Of a stretch of 47,048 nucleotides of DNA, positions 2 to 14,381 are shown one piece after another. Where the stretch lies: the sequence record DRR723986_4087; one strand, 5' to 3'. How positions within the stretch are numbered: position 1 is the first letter of the stretch; each line of letters starts with the position of its first letter. The position numbers were made by a program, and so were the translations under genes. Below the pieces are notes generated by a model. It saw nothing but the letters and a program-made list of their open reading frames with translations, was not told the DNA's origin and made no database searches.

Positions 2-835
2 TGCTGCACCGTGGCCGACGATTTCATCCCCACCATCGAGGCTCTGATGGCGCTGGACCCACGCCCCGAGCACATCCTAATCGAAACCTCAGGCCTCGCG
101 CTGCCTAAGCCGTTGCTCAAGGCGTTTGACTGGCCCGATATCCGCTCCAAGATCACCGTAGATGGCGTGATTGCACTGGCAGATGCCGAAGCTGTGGCCG
201 CAGGCCGCTTTGCCCCCAACGTGGCCGCCGTCGATGCACAGCGTCTTGCAGATGACTCCATCGATCACGAAACCCCCTTGAGCGAAGTGTTCGAAGACCA
301 AATTTCCTGCGCCGACATCATCCTGTTGACCAAACCCGATCTGGCTGGCCCCGAAGGCATCGCCAAAGCCAAAGAAATCATCGCCGCCGAGGCCCCCCGC
401 CCCCTGCCGGTGGTCGAAGTTGCCGAAGGCGTCGTAGACGTGCGCGTTGTGCTGGGTCTAGAAGCCGCCGCCGAAGACGACATGGATGCGCGCCCCAGCC
501 ATCACGACGGTCACCACGACCACGAACACGACGATTTTGAATCCATCGTTGTTGAGCTGCCCGAACTAACCGATCCGCTGGAACTGGTTTCGCGCATCGA
601 ACGTCTGGCGAACGAGCTGAACATTCTGCGCGTCAAAGGCTATGCTGCGGTTGCTGGCAAACCCATGCGCCTGCTGGTTCAGGCCGTTGGCGCCCGTGTC
701 CGTCATCAGTTCGACCGCCCATGGAAGCCCGAGGAAAATCGTCTGGGCCGCGTCGTGGTCATCGCAGAACATAATGACATCCAAGAAGCCAAGATCCGCG
801 ACATCCTCGCCGGTGTCACCGAACCTGCCGAGTAA
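2..835 (+). CDS. cobW: Cobalamin biosynthesis GTPase/metallochaperone CobW (COG0523), 5'-truncated by the window edge
   Basis: Frame from base 2 reads CCTVADDF (end of the GCxCC motif), then IETSGLALP, a His-rich HHDGHHDHEH linker and LRVKG; lies directly upstream of cobN. Confidence 0.95.
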   Translation, partial: CCTVADDFIPTIEALMALDPRPEHILIETSGLALPKPLLKAFDWPDIRSKITVDGVIALADAEAVAAGRFAPNVAAVDAQRLADDSIDHETPLSEVFEDQISCADIILLTKPDLAGPEGIAKAKEIIAAEAPRPLPVVEVAEGVVDVRVVLGLEAAAEDDMDARPSHHDGHHDHEHDDFESIVVELPELTDPLELVSRIERLANELNILRVKGYAAVAGKPMRLLVQAVGARVRHQFDRPWKPEENRLGRVVVIAEHNDIQEAKIRDILAGVTEPAE

Positions 836-849
836 GGGCTGAACCACCA

Positions 850-3800
850 ATGCATGTCGTCTTTCGCGAAAGCCACGGGTTAGAAGAATCCGAAACCCCA
901 ACCGATCTGGGTCAAAGCCCGGCGGATCTGGTGGTGCTGTCTTATTCAGACAGCGACCTTGGCGCTTTTGCGGCAGGCTGGCATCGCGGTGGTGGGCCAG
1001 ATGGGAACATGCCCACCTTGCGGCTGGCCAATCTGACCGCGCTCAAACACCCCCTGTCTGTCGACACTTATGTGGAACAGACGCTAGAGGGGGCCAAAGG
1101 CATCCTGATCCGTCTCATCGGCGGGGTGCCCTATTGGTCTTACGGGTTGCAGCAGGTCCTCAGCCTCGCCCAATCCAAAGGGCTGGCGCTGGCGGTTCTG
1201 CCAGCGGATGGGCGCGAAGACACTCGTCTGGATGACTATTCGACCCTTCCCGTCTCGACCCTGCGACGTCTGGCGCATCTGTGCGACACAGGCGGCGAAG
1301 TCGCGGCACAGGCTGCACTGGCGCAAATGGCGCTTGCGACCGGGTTTTATGCCAAGCCTGTGATGGGGTCTAAATCCTTGCCAGAATCTGGCGCTTGGTG
1401 CCCGGATCGGGGTGTAATTGCCCCCGAAACTGCATTTCAGGGCGACAAACCCCGCGTGTTGGTCAGCTTTTACCGGGCCTATTTAACTGCTGCGGATACC
1501 GCGCCAATTGCCGCCGTCATTCGTGCCTTTCGGGCCCGCGGGTACGACGCGGTTGGCCTGTTTGCTCCCTCCCTCAAAGCACCCAAATCAGCCAAATGGT
1601 TGGCGGAACAAGTTGTTGCCCTGTCCCCTGCGGCGATCGTCAATGCCACAGCATTCTCTGGCAAAGGGGCCAAGGGAACATCTCCGCTAGATGCGGCTGG
1701 CGTCCCTGTATTTCAGGTCGCGCTCGCCACGTCACGCCGCAAAGCCTGGGCCGAAGCGGAACGCGGCCTGTCCCCGGCAGATCTGGCTATGCACGTGGTC
1801 TTACCCGAGGTCGACGGCCGCATCGCTGCTGGTATCGTGTCGTTCAAGGAACCCGGTAAGCGCGACCCCCAGCTGGAATACTCTCGCTTTGCGCACCGCC
1901 CAGAACAGGAACGCATTGAAACGGTTGTGAACCGGGTGTCCGGCTGGATACGGCTTGCCATCAAACCCAAAGCCGATGTCACCCCAGTGCTGGTCCTTTC
2001 GACCTACCCCGGCAAAGACTGGCAGATGGCCCACGCGGTGGGTTTGGATGCCTTGGCATCAGCCGAAGCCGCCCTGACAGACCTGCAAGAAAAAGGGTAC
2101 AAAACCCACCCAGATGGCGCACTCCACGAAGAACTGCAAAATAAGACTATTTCATGGTCCGCAGAAGAATACGGCCAAGCTCTTGCCACATTGCCGCCAC
2201 AGTTACGCCAAAATCTGCACGATGCATGGGGTGTTTTTCGCGACGACCCTGCGTTTTCGCAAGGGGCATTCCACTTCAACGCGACCCTACGTGGCAAAGC
2301 CATCGTGGCACTGCAACCCGAACGCGGCACGCTAAAATTGCGCGAGGATGAATATCACGACCTGTCGCGCACGCCCCGTCATGGATACGTCGCGTTTTAC
2401 CTGTGGCTCCGGCATGCGCAGCACGCAGACGCCCTGATCCACATGGGCGCACATGGCACATTGGAATGGCTGCCGGGTAAATCCGTTGCGCTGTCAAACG
2501 ATTGCTGGCCCGAGGCGCTGATTGGCGACTTGCCCGTTATCTATCCCTTTATCGTCAATGACCCCGGCGAGGCCGCGCAAGCCAAACGCCGCATTGGTGC
2601 CGTGACCTTGGGACATATTCCACCGGCCCTGCGCGAAAGCGGTACACCCGACAAGATGGTGCGGCTCGAAACGCTGCTAGACGAATTCTCAAACGCGGAT
2701 GGTCTGGATCCCAAGCGGCGCGACCGCCTGCAAGCCGACATCCGAAGCGAAGCCCAAGCCATTGGCTTGGAGCAGGATCTGGGATTGGACAGCGCAACGT
2801 CCTTGGCCGAGGCACTGACACGCATCGACCGGTTTGTCTGTGATATCAAGGAAAGCCAGTTCGGCGATGGCCTGCACATTTATGGCCGCGTCCCCGAGGT
2901 TGTTGGCAATTTTGACCCCACCCCGTCGGCCCATGCCGAACGCTCAGGGCTATTGAATGCCCTCGCCGGGAAGCGGATCGAGGCTGGCCCCTCGGGCTCT
3001 CCCTATCGGGGGCGCAGCGACGTGCTGCCAACCGGGCGCAATCTGTTCACCACCGACCCACGATCCGTCCCGACACGTTCCGCCTATACCCAAGGTGTCA
3101 AACTGGCCGAAGAGCTGGTGCGTCGCCACCTGCAGGAAGAGGGCGATTACCCCAAGGGCTTGATTGTTGATCTCTGGGGGTCTGCAACCATGCGCACCGC
3201 TGGCGAAGAATTCGCGATGGCCTTGCATTTGCTGGGGGTCAAACCCGTCTGGGACAAAGGATCAGAACGTGTTTCAGGTATCGAGGTGTTGCCGATCACG
3301 GATCTGGATCGCCCCCGTTTGGATGTAACTCTGCGTGTGTCGGGCCTGTTCCGCGATGTATTCCCGACCTTGTCGGCCCTCTATGGTCGCGCCGTGCGCG
3401 CCCTGTGCGCCCGTGACGAAGCCGCAGATTGGAACCCTTACGCCGGGCAATCCCCTGCCGCGCGCGTCTACGGGCCTGCACCGGGCAGCTATGGCGTGGG
3501 CATGGGGGAACTCAGCGAGACATTCACCGAAGAGGCGCGCGTCGCCGCAGGACAAGCTTGGCTAAACGCCAGTTCCTTTGCCCTCGAAGGCGAGCATATC
3601 GCCCAAGATCTGGATGGTATCACCGATCGTGTCGCCAAAGCCGACAGTTTTGTCCACCTGCAAGACTTGAGTGAAACTGACCTTTTGCTGGCAAACGATT
3701 ATGCCACGCACGAAGCTGGATTTGCCGCCGCCAAGAACGTAACCGGTGGCAAAGCCCAGCTTTATCACTTGGACAATACCAACCCTGACACCCCGCGCGC

Positions 3801-4143
3801 CCGGACTTTGCCAGAAGAAGTCGCACGCGTTGTGCGTGCGCGCGCCGCCAACCCCGCTTGGATCGGTGGCATGCAACGCCATGGGTTCCGAGGGGCTGCC
3901 GAAATCGCCGCAACGTTGGACCACATGGCCTCGTTCGCGCATCTGTCCGGCACTGTCGCGCCGCATTTGTTCGATCTTTACCACGACGCCACCCTTGGCG
4001 ATCCAGAGGTCGAAGAGTTCCTGAAAAACGCCAATCCACAAGCCTTTGAAGCGATGCGGGATAAATTCCGCGCCCTGTACGAGGCCGGTTTGTGGGACAC
4101 ACGTCGCAATTCCCTGCGGGCCGAGATGGAGGGGTTGCTGTGA
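850..4143 (+). CDS. cobN: Cobaltochelatase subunit CobN
   Basis: 1097 aa; HMGAHGTLEWLPGK, NDPGEAAQAKRR, GPSGSPYRGRSDVLPTGRN and LWGSATMRT motifs. Confidence 0.97.
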   Translation: MHVVFRESHGLEESETPTDLGQSPADLVVLSYSDSDLGAFAAGWHRGGGPDGNMPTLRLANLTALKHPLSVDTYVEQTLEGAKGILIRLIGGVPYWSYGLQQVLSLAQSKGLALAVLPADGREDTRLDDYSTLPVSTLRRLAHLCDTGGEVAAQAALAQMALATGFYAKPVMGSKSLPESGAWCPDRGVIAPETAFQGDKPRVLVSFYRAYLTAADTAPIAAVIRAFRARGYDAVGLFAPSLKAPKSAKWLAEQVVALSPAAIVNATAFSGKGAKGTSPLDAAGVPVFQVALATSRRKAWAEAERGLSPADLAMHVVLPEVDGRIAAGIVSFKEPGKRDPQLEYSRFAHRPEQERIETVVNRVSGWIRLAIKPKADVTPVLVLSTYPGKDWQMAHAVGLDALASAEAALTDLQEKGYKTHPDGALHEELQNKTISWSAEEYGQALATLPPQLRQNLHDAWGVFRDDPAFSQGAFHFNATLRGKAIVALQPERGTLKLREDEYHDLSRTPRHGYVAFYLWLRHAQHADALIHMGAHGTLEWLPGKSVALSNDCWPEALIGDLPVIYPFIVNDPGEAAQAKRRIGAVTLGHIPPALRESGTPDKMVRLETLLDEFSNADGLDPKRRDRLQADIRSEAQAIGLEQDLGLDSATSLAEALTRIDRFVCDIKESQFGDGLHIYGRVPEVVGNFDPTPSAHAERSGLLNALAGKRIEAGPSGSPYRGRSDVLPTGRNLFTTDPRSVPTRSAYTQGVKLAEELVRRHLQEEGDYPKGLIVDLWGSATMRTAGEEFAMALHLLGVKPVWDKGSERVSGIEVLPITDLDRPRLDVTLRVSGLFRDVFPTLSALYGRAVRALCARDEAADWNPYAGQSPAARVYGPAPGSYGVGMGELSETFTEEARVAAGQAWLNASSFALEGEHIAQDLDGITDRVAKADSFVHLQDLSETDLLLANDYATHEAGFAAAKNVTGGKAQLYHLDNTNPDTPRARTLPEEVARVVRARAANPAWIGGMQRHGFRGAAEIAATLDHMASFAHLSGTVAPHLFDLYHDATLGDPEVEEFLKNANPQAFEAMRDKFRALYEAGLWDTRRNSLRAEMEGLL

Positions 4144-5267
4144 GCGCGCCTCTGGTTCGTGGCTGGTGCCCCAGCGCGCATAGACCGATGATGTCGGGCG
4201 ATGGATTGGTTGTCCGGGTGCGTCCGCGCCTGGCGCGCCTAACTGCGGATCAGATCCTTGGCCTGTGCACGGTGGCCAAAACATATGGCAACGGAACGAT
4301 TGATCTGACAAACCGCGCCAATCTGCAGGTGCGCGGTATTTCAGAGGACGATCATCAACCGATGTTGGCCGACTTGGCTGCGCTTGATCTGTTGGATCAA
4401 GAACCCGGGATCGAACGCAAACGCAACATTCTGGTCTCGCCACTTTACGACCAAGGGGATTTGACCGTCCAACTGAGTGCGGAATTGACTGATCGGTTGG
4501 CAGAACTGCCCGATATTCCAGCCAAATTTGGGTTTGCGGTGGATACTGGGCCCGCGCCTGTGATGACCGAATATTCAGCAGACATCCGCTTGGAACGCTC
4601 TGATGATGGACTGATCTTGCGGGCTGACGGAACAGACACCGGACGCCTAGTAAGCCAAGCCGAGGCAATCGATAAGCTGATAGAGTTGACCCATTGGTTT
4701 GCCCAAAATCACACCCAAGATGCCCGTCGCATGGTCCCTTTAGTGCGCAACATTACTCTGCCAAACATTTGGCAAGGCACCGCCCCCAATGCCCCCGACG
4801 CCCAGATGTCCCCCGGCATGACGACGCTAGGCCCAGTGTACGGCGCACCCTTTGGGGCATTGCCCGCACAGGCGCTAAGCGACCTCATACAACAAAGCGC
4901 TGCAAGCGCCCTGCGTGTCACCCCTTGGCGGCTTGTGTTGCTAGAAGGCGGCCAACCCGTTGATACAAATGCCTTTGTCTCGGCTCCAAACGATCCGCTA
5001 CTGACAACCGACGCCTGCCCCGGTGCGCCTTTCTGCCCGCAGGCCCAAGTCGCAACCCGCGACATCGCCAGCGCCCTTGCCAGCAAAACCACCGGTAGCC
5101 TGCACGTGTCTGGGTGTGTCAAAGGCTGCGCCCGACAATTGCCCGCTGATGTGACCCTTGTGGGCCATGCGGGACGATTTGACCTTGTAAAACATGGCCG
5201 CGCAGGGGATGAGCCCTGCCAACGTGGCCTAAGTCCCGAAACATTATTGAGCATGGATCTGACCTGA
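4140..5267 (+). CDS. cobG: Precorrin-3B synthase (monooxygenase) CobG
   Basis: GTG start overlaps the cobN stop (GTGA); RGWCP..MMSGDG N-terminus; Fe-S ligands CPGAPFC and HVSGCVKGC. Confidence 0.92.
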   Translation: MSAPLVRGWCPSAHRPMMSGDGLVVRVRPRLARLTADQILGLCTVAKTYGNGTIDLTNRANLQVRGISEDDHQPMLADLAALDLLDQEPGIERKRNILVSPLYDQGDLTVQLSAELTDRLAELPDIPAKFGFAVDTGPAPVMTEYSADIRLERSDDGLILRADGTDTGRLVSQAEAIDKLIELTHWFAQNHTQDARRMVPLVRNITLPNIWQGTAPNAPDAQMSPGMTTLGPVYGAPFGALPAQALSDLIQQSAASALRVTPWRLVLLEGGQPVDTNAFVSAPNDPLLTTDACPGAPFCPQAQVATRDIASALASKTTGSLHVSGCVKGCARQLPADVTLVGHAGRFDLVKHGRAGDEPCQRGLSPETLLSMDLT

Positions 5268-5896
5268 TGCCCTATGAATATGAAACCAACGGCGCAGCTA
5301 TCTATAAGCAGAGCTTTGCGACGATACGGTCCGAGGCAAACCTTGCCCGCTTTGACGCCGACGAAGAGCAAGTTGCCGTTCGCATGATCCACGCGGCGGG
5401 AATGGTCGGTCTCGAAGAATTCGTACACTTTTCCCCCAATTTCGTACAATCCGCGCGGGCGGCGATGGAAAACGGCGCGCCGATCTTTTGCGATGCGCGT
5501 ATGGTGTCCGAAGGCGTGACGCGGTTTCGCCTGCCCGCGGACAACGAAGTGATCTGCACCCTGCATGACGAGCGTGTGCGGCCTTTGGCAGAAAAGATGT
5601 CCAACACGCGGTCCGCCGCGGCTTTGGAATTGTGGCGGGACAAGCTGGAAGGGTCCGTTGTGGCCATCGGCAACGCGCCCACCGCTCTGTTCCACCTGCT
5701 GAACATGCTAGAAGACCCCGACTGTCCGCGCCCCGCCGCGATCATCGGCTGCCCTGTTGGGTTTGTCGGGGCCGTCGAATCCAAAGACGCCCTATGGGAG
5801 GCACAGCCAGTTCCCTCGGTCATCGTTCAGGGACGTTTGGGCGGTTCGGCCATCACCGTTGCTGCGATCAACGCCATCGCGAGCCGTGCGGAATGA
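5267..5896 (+). CDS. cobH: Precorrin-8X methylmutase
   Basis: IYKQSFATIRSEA, NTRSAAA, IGNAPTALF, PVGFVGA and GGSA motifs; TGATG coupling to cobG. Confidence 0.97.
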   Translation: MPYEYETNGAAIYKQSFATIRSEANLARFDADEEQVAVRMIHAAGMVGLEEFVHFSPNFVQSARAAMENGAPIFCDARMVSEGVTRFRLPADNEVICTLHDERVRPLAEKMSNTRSAAALELWRDKLEGSVVAIGNAPTALFHLLNMLEDPDCPRPAAIIGCPVGFVGAVESKDALWEAQPVPSVIVQGRLGGSAITVAAINAIASRAE

Positions 5897-6621
5897 GCAA
5901 CGGAACCATATACGGTCTGGGGCTTGGACCCGGCAATCCGGATTTGATGAGCGTCAAGTCTGACCGCCTGCTGCGCAACGCGCGCCACGTCGCGTATTTT
6001 CGCAAAGCGGGGAAGTCGGGTCAGGCGCGTCGCATTGTCGATGGTATCCTACCCGAGAATGTAATTGAATTTCCGATGGAATACCCGGTTACAACCGAAA
6101 TTCCACTGACAGACCCGCGCTATAACGAAGTGCTCGCCGCGTTTTACGCCGATTGCACCGTGCGATTGAAAGAACTGTCCGATCAGGGCGAGGATGTGGT
6201 TGTTCTGTGCGAAGGTGATCCGTTCTTTTACGGGTCATTCATGCACCTCTACACGCGTCTCAAGGATCACGCCCCCGTCGACGTCGTGCCAGCGATCACG
6301 GGCATGTCCGGTGCATGGACCGCCACTGGCGATCCGATCACATGGGGCGATGATGTTCTGACCGTATTGGTTGGCACGCTCTCCGAAGAAGAGCTGACCC
6401 GGCGCATGTCGGACACCGACGCACTGGTGGTGATGAAGATTGGGCGCAATATTGATAAGGTAAAGCGATCCCTGACAGCTGCTGGTCTGTATGATCGTGC
6501 GTGGATCGTGGAATACGCGCAAATGCCGAACCAGACTGTGACAAAGCTGTCCGAAGCGGCAAACGGTGTAACGCCCTATTTTTCGATCATCATCGTGCAT
6601 GGACAGGGTCGGCGACCATGA
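5893..6621 (+). CDS. cobI: Precorrin-2 C20-methyltransferase
   Basis: ATGA overlap with cobH; GLGPGNPDL, EGDPFFYGS, VMKIG and PYFS motifs. Confidence 0.95.
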   Translation: MSNGTIYGLGLGPGNPDLMSVKSDRLLRNARHVAYFRKAGKSGQARRIVDGILPENVIEFPMEYPVTTEIPLTDPRYNEVLAAFYADCTVRLKELSDQGEDVVVLCEGDPFFYGSFMHLYTRLKDHAPVDVVPAITGMSGAWTATGDPITWGDDVLTVLVGTLSEEELTRRMSDTDALVVMKIGRNIDKVKRSLTAAGLYDRAWIVEYAQMPNQTVTKLSEAANGVTPYFSIIIVHGQGRRP

Positions 6622-7385
6622 GCGGCTGGGTCAAAATCGCGGGCCTTGGCCCAGGAAAAGAGGCATTGGTCACCCCTGAGGTAACCGAGGCCCTGAGCCA
6701 AGCCACCGATATTGTTGGCTATATTCCCTATGTGGCCCGGATTGCCGAACGCCCCGGATTGACGCTGCACGCCAGCGACAACCGAGTTGAAATTGACCGA
6801 TCCCAGCACGCATTGCAAATGGCCAGCGAAGGCAAACGCGTCGTTGTCGTCTCGTCAGGTGATCCCGGTGTTTTTGCAATGGCATCAGCCGTTTTCGAGG
6901 CCGTGGACAATGGCCCCGCTGAATGGCGCGATCTGCAGATTGATGTCTTGCCCGGTATCACCGCCATGCTGGCCGCAGCTGCGCGCGCCGGTGCGCCTTT
7001 GGGGCACGATTTCTGCACCATCAATCTGAGCGATAACCTAAAGCCTTGGGAGGTCATCGAAAAACGTCTGCGTCTTGCGGCGCAGGCCGATTTTGCCATG
7101 GCATTCTACAATCCCCGCGCTAAATCCCGCCCCGGTAAATTTGAACGGGTGCTAGAGATCCTGCGCGAAGAATGTGAGCCAGAGCGGTTGATCCTGTTCG
7201 CCCGCGCCGTGTCCACGGATGAAGAAGCCCTGCGCATTTCACCCCTATCCGAGGCAACGCCAGAGATGGCGGACATGCGCACGATGGTTATTGTCGGCTC
7301 GTCGCTGACCCGGGTGATCGAACGCAAAGGCGATCCGATCCTCTACACCCCTCGGTTCATCGCCAAAGATCAGGCTCAGGAATGA
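6618..7385 (+). CDS. cobJ: Precorrin-3B C17-methyltransferase
   Basis: ATGA overlap with cobI; SSGDPGVFAMA, GAPLGHDF, YNPR and YTPR motifs. Confidence 0.95.
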   Translation: MSGWVKIAGLGPGKEALVTPEVTEALSQATDIVGYIPYVARIAERPGLTLHASDNRVEIDRSQHALQMASEGKRVVVVSSGDPGVFAMASAVFEAVDNGPAEWRDLQIDVLPGITAMLAAAARAGAPLGHDFCTINLSDNLKPWEVIEKRLRLAAQADFAMAFYNPRAKSRPGKFERVLEILREECEPERLILFARAVSTDEEALRISPLSEATPEMADMRTMVIVGSSLTRVIERKGDPILYTPRFIAKDQAQE

Positions 7386-8107
7386 GTCAGCCAGTCCAAG
7401 ACTTGCGCGGTGGTTGCCAGCTCGGTCCTTTGCGGGACAACGGGTCGGTCAATCATCAGCACGGGCAGCCCAAGATGGCGCGCGGCGTCCAGCTTGGCGC
7501 GTGCACCTATGCCACCCGCATTCTTGGACACAACCAGTTCGGTTTTATGCGCCTGCATCAGGGCGACATCATCGTCCAGCGTGAACGGGCCGCGCGCGAC
7601 AACAACCTGCGCCTTGGGCATCGGGACACTGTCGGGTTCATCCACCAGACGCAGCAGATAGTCATGCTGGGGCTGCGCGGCAAACTCTTGCAAATGCATG
7701 CGGCCAACAGCAAGGAACACCCGCTGGGACGCGCCCTGCAACGCCGTAACCGCAGCCGAAATATCCGCCACATGATGCCAAGTGTCTCCGGCACGACTTT
7801 GCCATGCGGGACGGGTCAACGCAGCGAGCGCAATTCCCGTCTGGGCACAAGCTTTGGCCGCGTTCCGGCTCATTTGCGCGGCAAAGGGATGGGTCGCGTC
7901 AACGACATGGGTCACCGCGTTTTCAGTGATGTAGTGTGCCAGCCCATCGGCCCCGCCAAACCCGCCAACCCGCGTTGGCAGGGGTTGGGGGCGCGGATTT
8001 TCCACCCGACCCGCGTAGGAATATGTGGCATTCACCCCCTGTTCGCACACAGCTTTGGCCAAGGCGTTGGCCTCGGTGGTGCCGCCAAGAATCAGGAGAT
8101 GGGACAT
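7376..8107 (-). CDS. cobK: Precorrin-6A (6X) reductase
   Basis: LILGGTTEA, GGFGG, VDATHPFA, RGPF and SKNAGG motifs; GGAG SD 8 nt upstream, inside cobL. Confidence 0.95.
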   Translation of the reverse strand: MSHLLILGGTTEANALAKAVCEQGVNATYSYAGRVENPRPQPLPTRVGGFGGADGLAHYITENAVTHVVDATHPFAAQMSRNAAKACAQTGIALAALTRPAWQSRAGDTWHHVADISAAVTALQGASQRVFLAVGRMHLQEFAAQPQHDYLLRLVDEPDSVPMPKAQVVVARGPFTLDDDVALMQAHKTELVVSKNAGGIGARAKLDAARHLGLPVLMIDRPVVPQRTELATTAQVLDWLTHS

Positions 8108-9305
8108 GGGTAACGCTCCGTGGCTGACCGTAATTGGGTTGGGCGAAGATGGACTGGATGGCCTGTCCCCCGCAAGCCGTCAAGTGCTGGACGACGCAGA
8201 GGTCATCATGGCCCCGCCCCGGCATCTGTCTCTGGTTCCGCAAGGGACACAGGATCGGATTGAATGGCCTGTTCCCTATGTGGACGGGTTCGCCCGGCTG
8301 CTGGATCTGCGGGGAAAAAAAACCGTTGTTTTGGCGTCAGGCGATCCGTTTTGGTTTGGCGCGGGGTCTGTGATTGCGCGCAATCTGGCGCCCGAGGAAT
8401 GGACCGCCCTGCCTGGTCCATCGACCTTTTCGTTGGCGGCGGCTCGTCTGGCTTGGCCGTTGGAACAAACGCTGACGATGGGATTGCACGCCGCCCCCTT
8501 AGCGCGTTTGCGGCCCCATCTTGCGCGCAGTGTTCGGGCGATTGTATTGCTGCGGGATGGCACTGCGGTGCTTGATCTGGCGGAATGGCTGACGGCGTTG
8601 GGGTTTGGCGACACCACGCTGCACGTGATGGAGGCCCTCGGTGGGCCACGTGAACGTGTGCGGCAGGGGACAGCGCAAGCCCTTGGGTTTGATGACATCG
8701 CCCATCCTGTGTGCGTCGGATTGAACATCGCTGGGGACGGGGCAAGCATCCCCAAAGCCAGCGGCATACCGGACACTTTGTTTGAAACGGACGGGCAGAT
8801 CACCAAACGGCCCATCCGCGCGCTGACCCTGTCGGCCTTGGCCCCGCAGCAAGGCGAGCATTTGTGGGATATCGGTGGCGGCACCGGGTCTATCGGCATC
8901 GAATGGCTGATGAGCCATCCCAGTGTGACGGCCACCACTATCGAGCCTCGTGCGGATCGCGCCGAACGCATTCGGCGAAATGCCGATGCGTTTGGGCAGG
9001 ATCGTTTGGAAATCGTGCACGGCCTGGCCCCGGATGCGTTGGTTGGGCTCACGGCCCCGGATGTTGTTTTCATCGGCGGCGGGTTCAGCGAAACCTTGAT
9101 GTGTTGGCTGCACGAAACGCTGCCTGCGGGAACGCGATTGGTCGCCAATGCTGTCACTTTGGAAAGTGAGGCGGCGCTGGCTGTGTGGCACGGTAAACTT
9201 GGCGGGGACTTGTTGCGGATCGAACTGGCGCACTCTGCACCCTTGGGTCCACGGCGCGGCTGGAAATCCGCCTATCCGGTGGTGCAGTGGAGCGTGACGC
9301 TATGA
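8106..9305 (+). CDS. cobL: Precorrin-6B C5,15-methyltransferase (decarboxylating), CbiE/CbiT two-domain protein
   Basis: ASGDPFWFG, GQITK, WDIGGGTGS, FIGGG and NAVTLE motifs; AGGAG SD at 8094-8098. Confidence 0.95.
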   Translation: MGNAPWLTVIGLGEDGLDGLSPASRQVLDDAEVIMAPPRHLSLVPQGTQDRIEWPVPYVDGFARLLDLRGKKTVVLASGDPFWFGAGSVIARNLAPEEWTALPGPSTFSLAAARLAWPLEQTLTMGLHAAPLARLRPHLARSVRAIVLLRDGTAVLDLAEWLTALGFGDTTLHVMEALGGPRERVRQGTAQALGFDDIAHPVCVGLNIAGDGASIPKASGIPDTLFETDGQITKRPIRALTLSALAPQQGEHLWDIGGGTGSIGIEWLMSHPSVTATTIEPRADRAERIRRNADAFGQDRLEIVHGLAPDALVGLTAPDVVFIGGGFSETLMCWLHETLPAGTRLVANAVTLESEAALAVWHGKLGGDLLRIELAHSAPLGPRRGWKSAYPVVQWSVTL

Positions 9306-9670
9306 TTGTTGCGGGCCTAGGGTTTTCCTCAACCGCCAGCGCTGACAGCCTGCGAGCGGCCTATGATCTGGCCAGCGCGAACCATGTCGTAACCGATTTA
9401 GCGACTGTTGCAGACAAAGACGGGCATCCTGCCCTATCCGATTTTGCACGCTCCCTGAACCTGCCACTCCATCTTATTGCTGCTGACGACCTTTCAGGGC
9501 AGCGCACCCTCACCTGCTCTCCGCTTAGCCGTGCCGCATATGGCACCGGCAGCGTCGCCGAAGCTGCGGCCCTTGCGGCCGCGGGATCTGGCGCGCGGCT
9601 GCTTTCCCCCAGACACATCTCGACCGACCGCCTTGCCACTTGTGCGGTCGCAATTGGAGCCCCTTCATGA
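9302..9670 (+). CDS. cobE: CobE / CbiG C-terminal-like protein
   Basis: ATGA overlap with cobL; MIVAGLG start, GSVAEAAAL motif, ATCAVA near the end. Confidence 0.85.
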
Positions 9671-10461
9671 CTGTTCATTTCATTGGTGCCGGACCCGGTG
9701 CCGCCGATCTTTTGACCCTGCGTGGGCGTGATATCATCGCGGCGTGTCCCGTGTGTTTGTATGCTGGATCTTTGGTTCCTGATGAAATCCTGAGCCATTG
9801 CCCCGATGATGCGAAAATCATCAACACAGCAGCTATGGATTTGGACGCAATCGTGGCCGAGATCAAAGCCGCTGATGCCGCTGGCCAAGACATTGCGCGC
9901 CTGCATTCCGGCGATCTGTCGGTCTGGTCTGCGATGGGCGAACAGATCCGTCGGCTCAAAGCTGAAGGCATTGCGGTCAGCGTCACACCCGGCGTGCCCT
10001 CCTTCGCTGCCGCCGCAGCCGCATTGGGCACCGAGTTGACCCTGCCCGGTTTGGCGCAATCCGTCGTCCTGACACGTACCCCGGGGCGCGCGTCATCTAT
10101 GCCCGAGGGCGAAACCCTGACCAACTTTGCGGCAACGGGCGCAACACTGGCGATCCACCTGTCGATTGGCAATCTGGACACAGTGATTGCAGATTTGACC
10201 CCTGCGTATGGCGCGGACTGCCCGGTAGCCGTGGTCTATCGTGCCAGCTGGCCAGATGAACAGATCATCCGGGCCACATTGGAGACATTGAAAGACTCAC
10301 TTGACGAAAGTATCTCGCGCACCGCGCTGATCCTTGTTGGTCCTGCCTTGGCAGGCGAAGGGTTCACCGAGAGCTGTTTATATTCAAAAGATTATGACCG
10401 TCGGTATCGCCCGCAAAGCGCCGAGAGCCCTTGGTCGAGCTGGAGCCATGGCGATGACTAA
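9667..10461 (+). CDS. cobM: Precorrin-4 C11-methyltransferase
   Basis: [27 protein letters not shown] and RASWPDE motifs. Confidence 0.96.
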
Positions 10462-11770
10462 CCCTCCTGGAGTATTGATTTCAGCGCCGTCCTCGGGGAC
10501 GGGAAAAACAACCGTGATGCTGGGCCTGTTGCGGGCTTTGGCCGAAGATGGGATGACCGTGCAGCCATTCAAAAGCGGCCCGGATTACATTGACCCTGCG
10601 TTCCATCTGGCCGCAGCCAAACGGCCGTCGTTTAACATCGACAGCTGGGCGATGGGCGAGGACTTGCTGAACGCGATTTCTGCACAGGCCGCTGGCGCAG
10701 ACATCGTTGTGGCCGAAGGATCCATGGGGCTGTTTGACGGGGTCGCTAAACCCGGCGCAGTGGGCCATGGCACCAGCGCTGAAACTGCTCTGCGCATGGG
10801 ATGGCCGGTTGTTCTGGTTCTGGACGTTGGTGGGCAAGCTCAATCAGCCGCCGCGACCGCGCTCGGGTTTCGGATGTACAACCCAGACCTGCCGTTTGCC
10901 GGTGTGATCCTGAACCGCTGCGCCAGTCCGCGCCACGAACGTCTGACCCGCTTGGGCATGGAACGCGCTGGCCTGCCTGTGTTGGGTGTGTTGCCCCGCC
11001 GTGGGGATCTGGCATTGCCGGAACGGCATTTGGGTTTGATTCAAGCTGTCGAACACCCCGATCTGGAAGCCGCCATCGCTGGGTATGCGACATTCCTGCG
11101 CGAACATGTTGATCTGGATGCGATCAAGGCGGCGGCCTCCTCAGGCCCTGTAGGGCTATCGTCGGCCGCGCTGCCGCGCCCACCCGCGCAACGGATCGCT
11201 TTGGCGCGCGATGCTGCATTCTCTTTCACCTACCCGCATTTGCTTAAGGGATGGCGCGACGCCGGGGCCGAGATCCTACCGTTTTCGCCTTTAGCTGATG
11301 AGGCCCCAGACGCAGATGCCGATCTGGTATGGTTGCCCGGTGGCTATCCCGAACTTCACGCCGGGACATTGGCGGCCGCAGAAACATTCTTGACCGGGTT
11401 GCGCACACATGCCGAAACCAAACCCGTACACGGCGAATGTGGGGGGTATATGGCCCTTGGCGAAGGGCTGGTAGACAAGGACGGCACACGTCATCGGATG
11501 GCGGGTCTGTTGGGCTTGGTCACCTCTTATGAAAAGCGCAAATTCAATCTGGGGTATCGCAAGGCCGAATTGATCGCGCCGATGCCCGGATTTTCCGTTG
11601 GTGCTGCTTTGCGTGGTCATGAATTCCACTATTCCTCGATCTTGGAACAGCCCGATCCGCCACTGGCCCGCGTCTTTGACGCGGAAGGGGCCGAAGGTCC
11701 GCAAACCGGATCTGTTCGGGGCCATGTCACCGGCACATTTTTCCATCTGATCGCAGAGGCCGAGGCATGA
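10454..11770 (+). CDS. cobB: Hydrogenobyrinate/cobyrinate a,c-diamide synthase
   Basis: SGTGKTT P-loop, [28 protein letters not shown] and HEFHY motifs; start at 10454 (GGAG SD) or 10448. Confidence 0.95.
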
Positions 11771-12495
11771 CCGGATTTGTCTCCTTTATCGGGTCAGGCC
11801 CCGGTGATCCTGAACTGTTGACGTTGAAAGCCGTTGATCGGTTGGGCAAGGCTGATGCAGTTCTGTTTGACGATCTCAGCAGTGGTCCAATCCTGACCCA
11901 CGCACATCCTGAGGCGGATATGGTTGGGGTTGGCAAACGTGCTGGACGCCCCTCGCCCAAGCAAGACCATGTGAGCCGTTTGTTGGTGGATTACGCCGAG
12001 ACGGGTGCCCACGTTGTGCGATTGAAATCCGGTGACGGGGGTATGTTTGGCCGACTGGAAGAAGAGCTGGTCGCGTTGCGCGCAGCTGGCATTGGATATG
12101 AGATCATTCCGGGCATTCCGTCCGCCGTTGCAGCAGCTGCCGCTGCAGGCATTCCCTTGACCCGACGCCTGACAGCCCGGCGAGTTCAGTTTGTGACCGG
12201 TCATGACGTCAGTGGCGCATTGCCAGACGATCTGAACCTGACCGCCTTGGCGGATTCACAAGCCACCACGGTGGTATTCATGGGCAAGCGCACGTTTCCA
12301 TTGTTAGTAGAGGCGTTGCATGCGCATGGGCTGCCGTTGGATACGCCTGCAATGTTGGCCGAGGCGGTTTCGACCCCCGATCAAGCCTTGCATCGGACCA
12401 CGATGGGGAATTTGGCCAAGCGGTTAGAGGCCGAAATCGGCACTGCACCTGCGTTGATCTTGTACGGTCCTTTGGCGGAATTTGACGATGTTTGA
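11767..12495 (+). CDS. cobA: Uroporphyrinogen-III C-methyltransferase (SUMT)
   Basis: GSGPGDPELLTLKA, VRLKSGD..MFGR..EE and VTGH motifs. Confidence 0.93.
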   Translation: MTGFVSFIGSGPGDPELLTLKAVDRLGKADAVLFDDLSSGPILTHAHPEADMVGVGKRAGRPSPKQDHVSRLLVDYAETGAHVVRLKSGDGGMFGRLEEELVALRAAGIGYEIIPGIPSAVAAAAAAGIPLTRRLTARRVQFVTGHDVSGALPDDLNLTALADSQATTVVFMGKRTFPLLVEALHAHGLPLDTPAMLAEAVSTPDQALHRTTMGNLAKRLEAEIGTAPALILYGPLAEFDDV

Positions 12496-13231
12496 ATTGA
12501 ACCTGATCGGTATCGGCACTGGGAACCCGGATCACGTGACCTTTCAGGGGGCACAGGCAATCCGTGATGCGGATTTGATCCTGATCCCGCGCAAGGGGAA
12601 CAACAAGGCAGACCTTGCTGGCATTCGGGAACACATCATCGAACAGGTGAGCGACACACCTGTAAAGATTGCTTATTTTGATATTCCCGAGCGTAAATCT
12701 GCAGATGGGTATCTGCGGGGAGTCGACGAGTGGCACGATGCGATTGCATTGCGGTGGCAGGACACCATCGCGGCACATGCCGGGGTGCAACAAGTGGCCT
12801 TGCTGATTTGGGGCGATCCATCGCTATACGACAGTTCTTTGCGTATCGCGTCCCGGCTTACGCCTGCCCCGACACTTCGGGTTATTCCCGGTATCACGGC
12901 CTTGCAGGCGCTGACGGCTGCCCACGCGATCCCGATCAACGATATTGGTGCGCCTTACGTTGTCACGACCGGCCGGCGAATCCGCGATGAAGGCTGGCCA
13001 GCGGGTGTCGAAAAGGTTGCGGTCATGCTGGATGGGGAGTGTTCGTTTCAGCACCTTCCCATGGGCGATTATCACATTTGGTGGGGCGCTTACGTCGGCA
13101 TGAAGGAACAGATTCTCATCCAAGGCCCACTGGATGACGTTGCCCAAAGTATTTTGGACACGCGCGCAGCCGCCCGGGCGGATCATGGCTGGATCATGGA
13201 CATCTATTTGCTCAAAAAGCGCGCAAACTGA
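12488..13231 (+). CDS. cobF: Precorrin-6A synthase (deacetylating)
   Basis: IGIGTGNPDHVT, WGDPSLYDS, TTGRR, WWGAY and HGWIMDIY motifs. Confidence 0.95.
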   Translation: MFELNLIGIGTGNPDHVTFQGAQAIRDADLILIPRKGNNKADLAGIREHIIEQVSDTPVKIAYFDIPERKSADGYLRGVDEWHDAIALRWQDTIAAHAGVQQVALLIWGDPSLYDSSLRIASRLTPAPTLRVIPGITALQALTAAHAIPINDIGAPYVVTTGRRIRDEGWPAGVEKVAVMLDGECSFQHLPMGDYHIWWGAYVGMKEQILIQGPLDDVAQSILDTRAAARADHGWIMDIYLLKKRAN

Positions 13232-13288
13232 CCTGAAGTGTCGCGAATCGTGATTGCGTCACCATCGCGATCACGGTTAGATGGAGAG

Positions 13289-13470
13289 GCTTGGTCCTGC
13301 TGGAGCAATCTGGATGCTAAGAGGGAATTGGGTGCGACCGCAAATGCGGACAATGCCCAAGCCGCCCCCGCGACTGTAAGCGGCGAGCGTCTGTCCATAC
13401 AGCCACTCATGGGGTTCCATGGGGAAGGCGGACAGACGCAGCGACCCGTGAGCCAGGAGACCTGCCAGGC
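13289..13470 (+). promoter_or_regulatory. Cobalamin riboswitch (B12 element), long AdoCbl-type form
   Basis: Conserved blocks AAGAGGGAA, GCCCCCGCGACTGTAA, GCCACT, GGGAAGG and B12 box GAGCCAGGAGACCTGCC; P1 pairing GCTTGGT/GCCAGGC; upstream of cobalt transporter genes. Confidence 0.95.
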
Positions 13471-13519
13471 AAAAACTGTAACACCGGCCGTCGGGTGCGA
13501 CGGCTTAGGAGGATAGAAT

Positions 13520-13690
13520 ATGACGACGAAGACACTTAAGGCATCTGCCGCTGGTTTTGGTTTCGCCCCAGCACTGTTCGCTGTTGTTCTGGGTCTGGGT
13601 ATTGTGACCCTGACTGGACACGTACAGGCATCTGCCCTGCATGACGCCGCACATGACGTGCGTCACGCAACTGGCTTCCCCTGCCACTAA
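13520..13690 (+). CDS. cbtB: Cobalt transporter small subunit CbtB (56 aa; absent from the ORF track)
   Basis: AGGAGG SD; manual translation gives one TM helix then HDAAHDVRHATGFPCH. Confidence 0.93.
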   Translation: MTTKTLKASAAGFGFAPALFAVVLGLGIVTLTGHVQASALHDAAHDVRHATGFPCH

Positions 13691-13694
13691 GCAC

Positions 13695-14381
13695 ATGTTT
13701 TCCCGCATTTTAACCAGCGCGTTGTTCGCTGGTGCTGCAGCAGGGCTGATTGCCGCCTTGCTGCAGTTGGTGTTTGTGCAACCTGTTTTGTTGCACGCCG
13801 AGCTCTATGAGTCCGGGGAGTTGGTGCATTTCGGGGCTGACGCTGTCAGTGCCCATCCGGATCTGCCCGGCATCGATCTGATGCGCGACGGGCTGAGTAT
13901 CGTGTTCACGATGCTTACTTACACCGGATATGCACTTGTGATGGTTGCACTGATGGCCATGGCCGAAGGTCAGGGACACACGATCAATGGTCGCACAGGT
14001 TTACTGTGGGGGATGGCCGGGTTTATCGCCTTCCATTTCGCCCCCGGTTTAACGCTAGCACCCGAGGTTCCTGGTGTTGCCGCAGCCGATGTTGGCGCGC
14101 GCCAGATCTGGTGGACTGGGACCGTAGCCTCGGCCGCTGTTGCCATGTGGTTGATCGCATTTGCCCGGTCTTGGATGCTGTGGGGTGTTGCGGCGGTCTT
14201 GCTGCTTGCGCCGCATGTTATCGGGGCCCCGGAACCAGCGGTCTTTACTGGTCCGGTTCCAACCGAAATCGGCGCGTTGTTTGCAGCGCGTGCATTTGGT
14301 GTTGGCATGGCTGCTTGGGTCCTTGTTGGGTGCTTTGCAGGCTATTTCTGGAACACCGAAGGCGCTCGCGCAGACGCTTAA
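13695..14381 (+). CDS. cbtA: Cobalt transporter subunit CbtA
   Basis: Multi-TM protein; AELYE, LAPEVPG, RQIWW and APH.IGAP motifs; follows cbtB. Confidence 0.92.
   Translation: MFSRILTSALFAGAAAGLIAALLQLVFVQPVLLHAELYESGELVHFGADAVSAHPDLPGIDLMRDGLSIVFTMLTYTGYALVMVALMAMAEGQGHTINGRTGLLWGMAGFIAFHFAPGLTLAPEVPGVAAADVGARQIWWTGTVASAAVAMWLIAFARSWMLWGVAAVLLLAPHVIGAPEPAVFTGPVPTEIGALFAARAFGVGMAAWVLVGCFAGYFWNTEGARADA

Follow-up and report, generated by a model that had tools for sequence, protein, structure and literature searches.

The DNA examined here, which we refer to as the window, is a stretch of 47,048 nucleotides (nt) from sequence record DRR723986_4087 that carries a cob gene cluster in which cobK lies inverted between cobJ and cobL. 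Antisense to cobK, on the strand of the other cob genes, runs a long open reading frame (ORF), called here the bridge ORF, that begins on the stop codon of cobJ and ends just inside cobL. Comparison with related loci indicates that the bridge ORF is no chance shadow ORF. We consider it likely that the ORF is translated as a bridge across cobK in this noncontiguous cob operon, keeping ribosomes on the mRNA all the way from cobJ to cobL.

The bridge ORF and cobK are in the same codon phase (7382-7376 = 6). At its 3' end the ORF lies over the start of cobL (ATGGGTAA at 8106-8113), and the whole has the geometry of a coupled ORF, with its start on the stop of the upstream cobJ and its stop adjoining the start of the downstream cobL. 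The ATGA junction at its start recurs elsewhere in the window, at cobH/cobI, cobI/cobJ, cobL/cobE, cobE/cobM and between cobB and the next gene, and a TGATG is found at cobG/cobH. Not one of the 243 codons of cobK is TTA, CTA or TCA, the codons that would place a stop in the bridge frame (antisense-stop codons), compared with 66 in the 3,910 codons of the 11 other cob genes of the window, each of which contains between 1 and 21 and none of which is free of them. Given the Leu and Ser codon usage of its neighbours, 3.4 would be expected in cobK, and the probability of finding none is 0.027. An earlier note on this DNA had described a 243-codon ORF with an ATGA start and a TAA just past the cobL start, had pointed to the same coupling at other cob junctions (five more are seen) and had stated that cobK avoids TTA, CTA and TCA while its neighbours use them; coordinates, sequence and codon counts agree with all of this. 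On its own the window is suggestive only: the open antisense frame is mildly unusual, and the weight rests on the comparison across genomes.

For that comparison CobK was searched with one genome per species, which gave 514 relatives. We used the best 80, mostly from Rhodobacterales plus Marinobacterium, Halomonas and Granulosicoccus, and added the window (n = 81). In all 80 related loci cobJ and cobL are on the strand opposite cobK. The neighbouring cob genes served as codon background: expectations were calculated locus by locus from the Leu and Ser codons found there, and the observed/expected sums cover the loci with at least 300 neighbour codons. Among the 19,339 cobK codons of the 80 relatives there is a single antisense-stop codon, and 79 of the 80 genes have none. 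The genes cobG, H, I, J, L, E, M and B contain 0.51-1.22 such codons per 100 and, depending on the gene, lack them altogether in only 3-33 of 70-80 loci. With the window included, 1 antisense-stop codon was observed against 142.2 expected (Poisson P 2.6e-60), and the frame is open in 80 of the 81 loci, where 24.4 would be expected. The one antisense-stop codon (locus L002) precedes the ORF start and belongs to a C-terminal extension of cobK. What is more, the depletion is confined to one frame: in the interior of cobK (18,337 codons, 80 loci) the bridge frame has 0 stops, compared with 396 and 356 in the two remaining frames of that strand.

Wider sampling gave a similar picture. Of 301 genomes sampled evenly across the class, 96 had CobK, and 89 of these were analysed; a sample of 400 genomes from the class of Marinobacterium yielded 26, of which 21 were analysed; and order-level sampling around three genomes of the class sample (orders of 13, 11 and 1 genomes) added 9 new loci. 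The 17 embedded alphaproteobacterial loci (cobJ>cobK<cobL) contain 16 antisense-stop codons against 33.9 expected, and 12 of the 16 are in one locus, L100. Without L100 there are 4 against 18.9, all four at the extremes of the ORF, those of L099 and L129 being the bridge ORF's own stop, and internal stops are absent in 16 of the 17 loci. Another 19 embedded loci show 0 antisense stops against ~24.9 expected (the sum of per-locus values) and have NTGA starts. They are not independent picks: seven are relatives of two sample genomes, and the other twelve come from named records of plasmids or chromids, six of them from Rhizobium and the rest from Sinorhizobium, Nitratireductor, Methylorubrum, Sphingobium, Novosphingobium and Haematobacter. 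Where these records come with a gene table, cobK is the sole annotation over the stretch.

Genes for CobK that are not embedded served as controls. In many alphaproteobacteria (L085-L153, e.g., L098 3719-4834 on the minus strand) cobK lies downstream of cbiD on the same strand, convergent with cbiH-cbiF, and CbiD was confirmed with Pfam in 4 of the 4 units tested. In these cbiD-cobK units (n = 34) the ratio of observed to expected antisense stops (O/E) is 1.09, in other arrangements of cobK (n = 15) it is 1.2 and in co-directional cobK (n = 2) it is 1.04; two additional cbiD-type loci contain 3 and 5 stops, with 2.4 and 2.5 expected. The earlier note had proposed a comparison of this kind. Inverted cobK genes embedded between cobJ and cobL do not carry antisense stops at background frequency (1 against 142.2), their frame is open and coupled at both ends (80 of 81 open, 24.4 expected), and cobK genes that are not embedded return to the background rate, as the note had predicted.

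The same controls speak to the idea that cobK has its own grounds, in translation or mRNA structure for instance, for shunning TTA, CTA and TCA, with the open frame as a by-product. All three codons are rare and end in A, and the codon adaptation index (CAI) of cobK in its sense frame, 0.693, is near that of its neighbours. In the cbiD-cobK and other contexts, however, cobK uses these codons at the rate of its neighbours (O/E 1.09-1.2), which contradicts the idea, and the open spacers, NTGA start and placed stop described below are left unexplained by it. We regard it as very improbable.

Both ends of the bridge ORF are conserved. In 72 of the 81 loci its start codon and the cobJ stop share an NTGA (59 ATG, 12 GTG and 1 TTG); the start lies at +2 or +3 from that stop in 6 and at +11 or +18 in 3, and is thus within 3 nt in 78 of 81. 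Nine loci have a non-coding spacer of 49-132 nt between the cobJ stop and the end of cobK; in 9 of 9 the ORF begins at the cobJ stop and is open throughout, so that cobK codon usage is no explanation for the open frame there. At the other end, the bridge stop ends at +7 from the A of the cobL ATG in 78 of 81 loci, as TGA (73), TAA (6) or TAG (1), and cobL codon 2 has a T at its third, synonymous position in 78 of 80. Because CAT, the antisense of the cobK ATG, is followed by GNN, which is never a stop, the stop at +7 is the earliest possible one. In other alphaproteobacteria with 33-100 nt between cobK and cobL, the ORF continues through the spacer to the cobL start or its vicinity, ending in an ATGA, TTGA or GTGA overlap or at +7 to +17. 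In L036, L042 and L044 the cobJ-cobK spacers, of 90-132 nt, contain GC-rich inverted repeats, e.g., GGGGGGCGCTGCCCCCC in L036, and the bridge ORF reads through them; these repeats might be cobK terminators or elements resembling repetitive extragenic palindromes (REP-like), melted by translation of the operon strand.

These observations bear on the simplest alternative, that the bridge ORF is a shadow ORF produced by GC content, its ends set by tight gene packing. In its favour, the window has a GC content of ~58-60% and holds other antisense ORFs of ~240-370 amino acids, its own probability of lacking a stop (0.027) is not extreme, and above 70% GC an open frame is to be expected (P0, the probability of no stop, 0.6-1.0). 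Chance would nevertheless have to produce a joint result of ~1e-60 over 81 loci, in one frame only, an ORF that follows the cobJ stop across non-coding spacers and a stop-making synonymous T in 78 of 80 loci; cobK genes that are not embedded, moreover, are not depleted. The alternative is rejected on these grounds, and we put its probability at practically nil.

A frame can be conserved for the sake of its peptide. Since the third positions of cobK codons are the first positions of bridge codons, synonymous sites in cobK probe constraint on the bridge peptide. We compared four-fold sites in 31 of the 80 loci, those in which six genes were free of '*' in the tblastn match. Third-base identity at sites coding for the same amino acid was 0.428 and 0.469 for cobK in two divergence bins and 0.447-0.544 for cobH, J, L and M; the value for cobI was higher because the cobI match overlaps cobH. 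No excess of synonymous constraint in cobK, the mark of an antisense overlapping gene, was found at the four-fold sites of these 31 loci. A search of 5.8 billion proteins with the bridge peptide returned 20 relatives of 243-248 amino acids, all unnamed and with no Pfam domain. Beyond the four closest these are 41-47% identical, compared with 58-78% for the best 80 CobK matches. The product of the bridge ORF in the window matched no Pfam family.

That the ORF encodes a functional protein, making it a true antisense overlapping gene, seems to us quite unlikely in view of these data. It is true that the conserved frame has a start codon and, in most loci, a length of ~243-266 codons, and the 20 database entries mean that gene callers sometimes predict it. 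A protein under selection is hard to reconcile with cobK synonymous sites, the first positions of the ORF's codons, that are no more conserved than those of the neighbours, with peptide relatives of lower identity (41-47%) than the best CobK matches (58-78%), with additional N- and C-terminal segments that are unrelated in sequence among the spacer loci, and with database relatives that all lack a name or domain, as the peptide lacks a Pfam match. The pattern indicates instead that selection is on the openness of the frame and on both of its ends, not on the sequence of the product. It fits the suggestion of the earlier note that the peptide would be secondary to translation. The codon adaptation of the bridge frame was examined as well and set aside: its CAI is above that of the neighbours' antisense frames in 74 of 81 loci, but cobK genes that are not embedded behave alike (mean difference 0.031 versus 0.037), and the excess is therefore an effect of cobK composition.

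The mechanism that we propose would work as follows. The operon mRNA crosses ~730 nt antisense to cobK. Ribosomes finishing cobJ would reinitiate at the overlapping ATG of the ATGA, the same ribosomes would read the entire antisense stretch, and they would terminate at the first possible stop past the cobL ATG (ATGnnTAA). Initiation at cobL would follow, helped by its own AGGAG (8094-8099) inside the bridge; an AGGAG-like sequence is present at the matching position in most related loci, as judged from the junction strings. No well-spaced Shine-Dalgarno sequence precedes the NTGA, and the start of the bridge would accordingly depend on translation of cobJ. Since the full 0.73 kb is open, and not merely a short ORF beside cobL, continuous ribosome cover would be the selected trait. 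Rho polarity is strong in Proteobacteria. The likely benefit of the bridge would be that the mRNA is never bare, which would spare cobL and the genes behind it from Rho-dependent polarity; ribosome cover may also block pairing of the mRNA with the complementary cobK mRNA, and its cleavage. Translating ribosomes shield intragenic Rho utilization (Rut) sites, loss of translation leads to Rho polarity downstream, and Rho represses antisense transcription, according to the available text of PMC12360218. A Rho RNA-binding domain was found in 5 of the 5 related genomes searched. By Cappable-seq in Ensifer adhaerens and S. meliloti, a promoter at cobH gives rise to a single cobHIJLM transcript that includes the antisense of cobK, and cobK is counter-transcribed separately, as stated in the accessible part of bioRxiv 10.64898/2026.09.15.751800.

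The benefit could also be one other than protection from Rho. The frame would again be translated, but as a shield from pairing with cobK mRNA and from RNase III/RNase E, or as a means of setting the ratio of cobK to operon expression in the manner of an excludon. The sequence evidence is the same, RNase III processing across the overlap is known in noncontiguous operons (PMC7154746, in the part available), and the excess of C over G in the bridge RNA is only weak. Continuous cover would fit protection from Rho and, equally, protection from cobK-mRNA pairing; the two are compatible, and nothing here tells them apart. As a replacement for the Rho-based benefit we hold this alternative to be unlikely. 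Richness in C over G was itself tried as a Rut signature and set aside as weak, and it fails to separate the exceptional loci described below from the others.

Several points weigh against a translated bridge that counters Rho. Translation of the bridge frame is something we infer from sequence, and the same goes for reinitiation at cobL and for the part of Rho. The C/G ratio of the bridge RNA is 1.02 compared with 0.88-0.94 in the flanking genes, which is no strong Rut signature. The presence of a Shine-Dalgarno sequence of its own means that cobL would not strictly require coupling for its start. In codon adaptation the bridge frame does not surpass the antisense frame of cobK genes that are not embedded. 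Many of the compared loci are related, and among the 19 further ones six are from Rhizobium and seven were chosen as kin of two earlier loci; above ~70% GC the stop count has little power as a test. Finally, some genomes have the embedded arrangement and manage without a bridge: antisense stops occur at the background rate in the embedded loci L100 (GC 0.47, 12 stops), L165 (GC 0.58, 10 stops) and L179 (GC 0.27, 15 stops), and the genome with L100 (G291) has Rho.

In these three loci the coupled start and stop are missing too. The bridge ORF is therefore widespread yet dispensable, and its three features are lost jointly. L100 is a natural bridge knockout in a small, low-GC genome (~2.1 Mb): it retains the tight order cobG-H-I-J>K<L-E-M-B but lacks both the NTGA start and the placed stop. 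Two loci with cobJ>cobK< and no cobL behind, L137 and L161, contain 5 and 3 stops.

Noncontiguous operons were described by Saenz-Lahoya et al. (2019) for S. aureus menE-menC-MW1733-ytkD-MW1731, have been reviewed (PMC7154746) and are the subject of an atlas (PMC11034616). The cob locus resembles them in that one gene inside the operon is inverted and the polycistronic mRNA therefore runs antisense to it, here to cobK. Their antisense stretch, as far as the available text of PMC7154746 goes, is an internal untranslated region, whereas the cob stretch has a conserved, end-coupled ORF. How transcription crosses an antisense stretch without translation is posed as a puzzle in PMC11034616, for which uncoupled transcription is given as the answer in Gram-positive bacteria; the accessible part of that article offers no explanation for Proteobacteria. 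Our data suggest that the bridge ORF is a different answer, in Proteobacteria, to the same puzzle. A search of the literature, with most subscription journals outside it, found no description of a conserved ORF antisense to cobK or of a translated bridge in a noncontiguous operon.

The bridge ORF shares features with three other known systems. Like genes coupled through ATGA or TGATG, and like the cob genes of the window, it has an NTGA start on the stop of cobJ, and its own stop overlaps the cobL start or follows closely; unlike them, it is the antisense of another gene and not a gene selected for its product. The leader ORFs of corA and topAI are cases in which translation, not the product, governs Rho termination. 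The principle is described in PMC12360218, in the part available. As in those leaders, the bridge would matter through ribosomes that occupy the RNA and block Rho, but corA and topAI leader ORFs are short, lie in the 5' leader and act as conditional switches, whereas the bridge has ~243 codons, is internal to the operon, is apparently constitutive and overlaps a functional gene. With shadow ORFs and antisense genes it has in common its length and its place opposite a known gene, in the codon-for-codon antisense frame. It differs from shadow ORFs in that its conservation exceeds what composition would give, and from true overlapping genes in that the synonymous sites of the host gene are unconstrained.

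It is conceivable, though we would call it doubtful, that a general rule stands behind this case, namely that genes inverted within operons, in bacteria with coupled transcription and translation, keep the antisense frame on the operon strand open and end-coupled. If this were true, long antisense ORFs of a kind now written off as shadow ORFs would be translation conduits and not protein genes, and cobK would be the first and oldest case, common to Rhodobacterales, Hyphomicrobiales, Sphingomonadales and some Gammaproteobacteria. For the cob locus itself, our data suggest that selection keeps the frame open at the cost of codon choice in the embedded cobK. This is a clear case of an antisense frame selected without selection on its product, which bears on how conserved antisense ORFs are read and on what ORF conservation says about the presence of a gene. 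Because the cob cluster is engineered to produce vitamin B12, there is a practical side as well: a recoded cobK could unknowingly break the bridge and lower cobL-cobM expression. One synonymous change would suffice for a direct test. In Pseudomonas denitrificans, according to the earlier note, cobK was reportedly first assigned to the ORF on the sense strand and later moved to the opposite strand.

Positions of cob genes and junction elements around the bridge ORF in the window.
Feature	Position	Strand	Remarks
cobW	11-835	+	truncated at window edge
cobN	850-4143	+	
cobJ (precorrin-3B C17-methyltransferase)	6618..7385	+	Pfam TP_methylase, E 5e-29
cobK (precorrin-6A reductase)	7376..8107	-	Pfam CbiJ PF02571, E 1.2e-73; 243 codons, ATG
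Bridge ORF	7382..8113	+	243 codons, ATG; codon-for-codon antisense to cobK
ATGA junction	7382-7385	+	bridge ORF start codon overlapping cobJ stop
AGGAGA, Shine-Dalgarno-like	8094..8099	+	6 nt 5' of cobL ATG, within bridge ORF; putative function
CATG	8105..8108	both	cobK start (8107-8105, -) and cobL start (8106-8108, +), 2-nt overlap
cobL (precorrin-6B C5,15-methyltransferase/decarboxylase)	8106..9305	+	Pfam TP_methylase; first gene 3' of bridge ORF
TAA	8111-8113	+	bridge ORF stop; 5 nt past cobL ATG, i.e. ends +7 from its A

The cob cluster of the window comprises, on the plus strand, cobW, cobN, cobG, cobH, cobI and cobJ, followed by cobL, cobE (of the CbiG_C type), cobM, cobB and two tetrapyrrole methylase genes, the last of which reaches 13231 and ends the cluster. 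The only inverted gene is cobK, with zero intergenic DNA on both sides. Its product matches PF02571 over the full length (residues 4-240 over profile positions 2-233 of 234). For cobJ the likely start is the ATG at 6618, within an ATGA that overlaps the cobI stop, and its stop is the TGA at 7383-7385; the cobK stop is at 7376-7378, and the 3' ends of the two genes overlap by 10 nt. The N-terminus of CobL is MGNAPWLTVIGL. The position of cobJ is kept, and cobL is the neighbour of cobK, in 80 of 80 related loci, all of which have the order cobJ (+), cobK (-), cobL (+) that, with its overlapping ends, is the layout of a noncontiguous operon. The start overlap of the CATG type between cobK and cobL (Lstart-Khi = -1) was counted manually, row by row, in 76 of the 80.

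At this overlap the ribosome-binding sites of cobK and cobL are each encoded within the other gene. The AGGAGA at 8094-8099 is the antisense of the cobK codons for an N-terminal Leu-Leu in the nucleotide-binding motif, and the likely Shine-Dalgarno sequence of cobK, GGAG on the minus strand at 8115-8118, is the antisense of cobL codons 4-5. Three other long antisense ORFs are present in the window, all on the minus strand: 3562-4668 (368 amino acids), opposite cobN/cobG; 4709-5695 (328 amino acids), opposite cobG/cobH/cobI; and 8499-9233 (244 amino acids), opposite cobL. They look like ordinary shadow ORFs. Over 80 loci, cobL and cobG contain ~1 antisense-stop codon per 100 codons. A scan for promoters and terminators from 3500 to 13500 gave no more sites than shuffled sequence, and no riboswitch was found within the window 5' of the cobW-cobN...cobF cluster. 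A cobalamin riboswitch (RF00174, 118 bits) is located at 13275-13483 (+), directly 3' of the cob cluster and 5' of cbtA (13641-14381).

In the cobG-type cluster and in the clusters with a cbiD-cobK unit alike, cobK is oriented counter to the methylase genes, and it is singly embedded only in the cobG-type cluster. A different arrangement is found in L202, on the Ralstonia solanacearum megaplasmid CP022769.1, where cobJ and cobK are fused and co-directional and the gene is annotated as a bifunctional precorrin-3 methyltransferase/precorrin-6x reductase. A search of the plasmid collection matched 129 Ralstonia records by the first word of the organism name, and among the matches listed the gene is annotated as cobJ, as a bifunctional enzyme, as a hypothetical protein or not at all. 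The cobJ-cobK fusion in L202 is an alternative route to a cobK beside cobJ.

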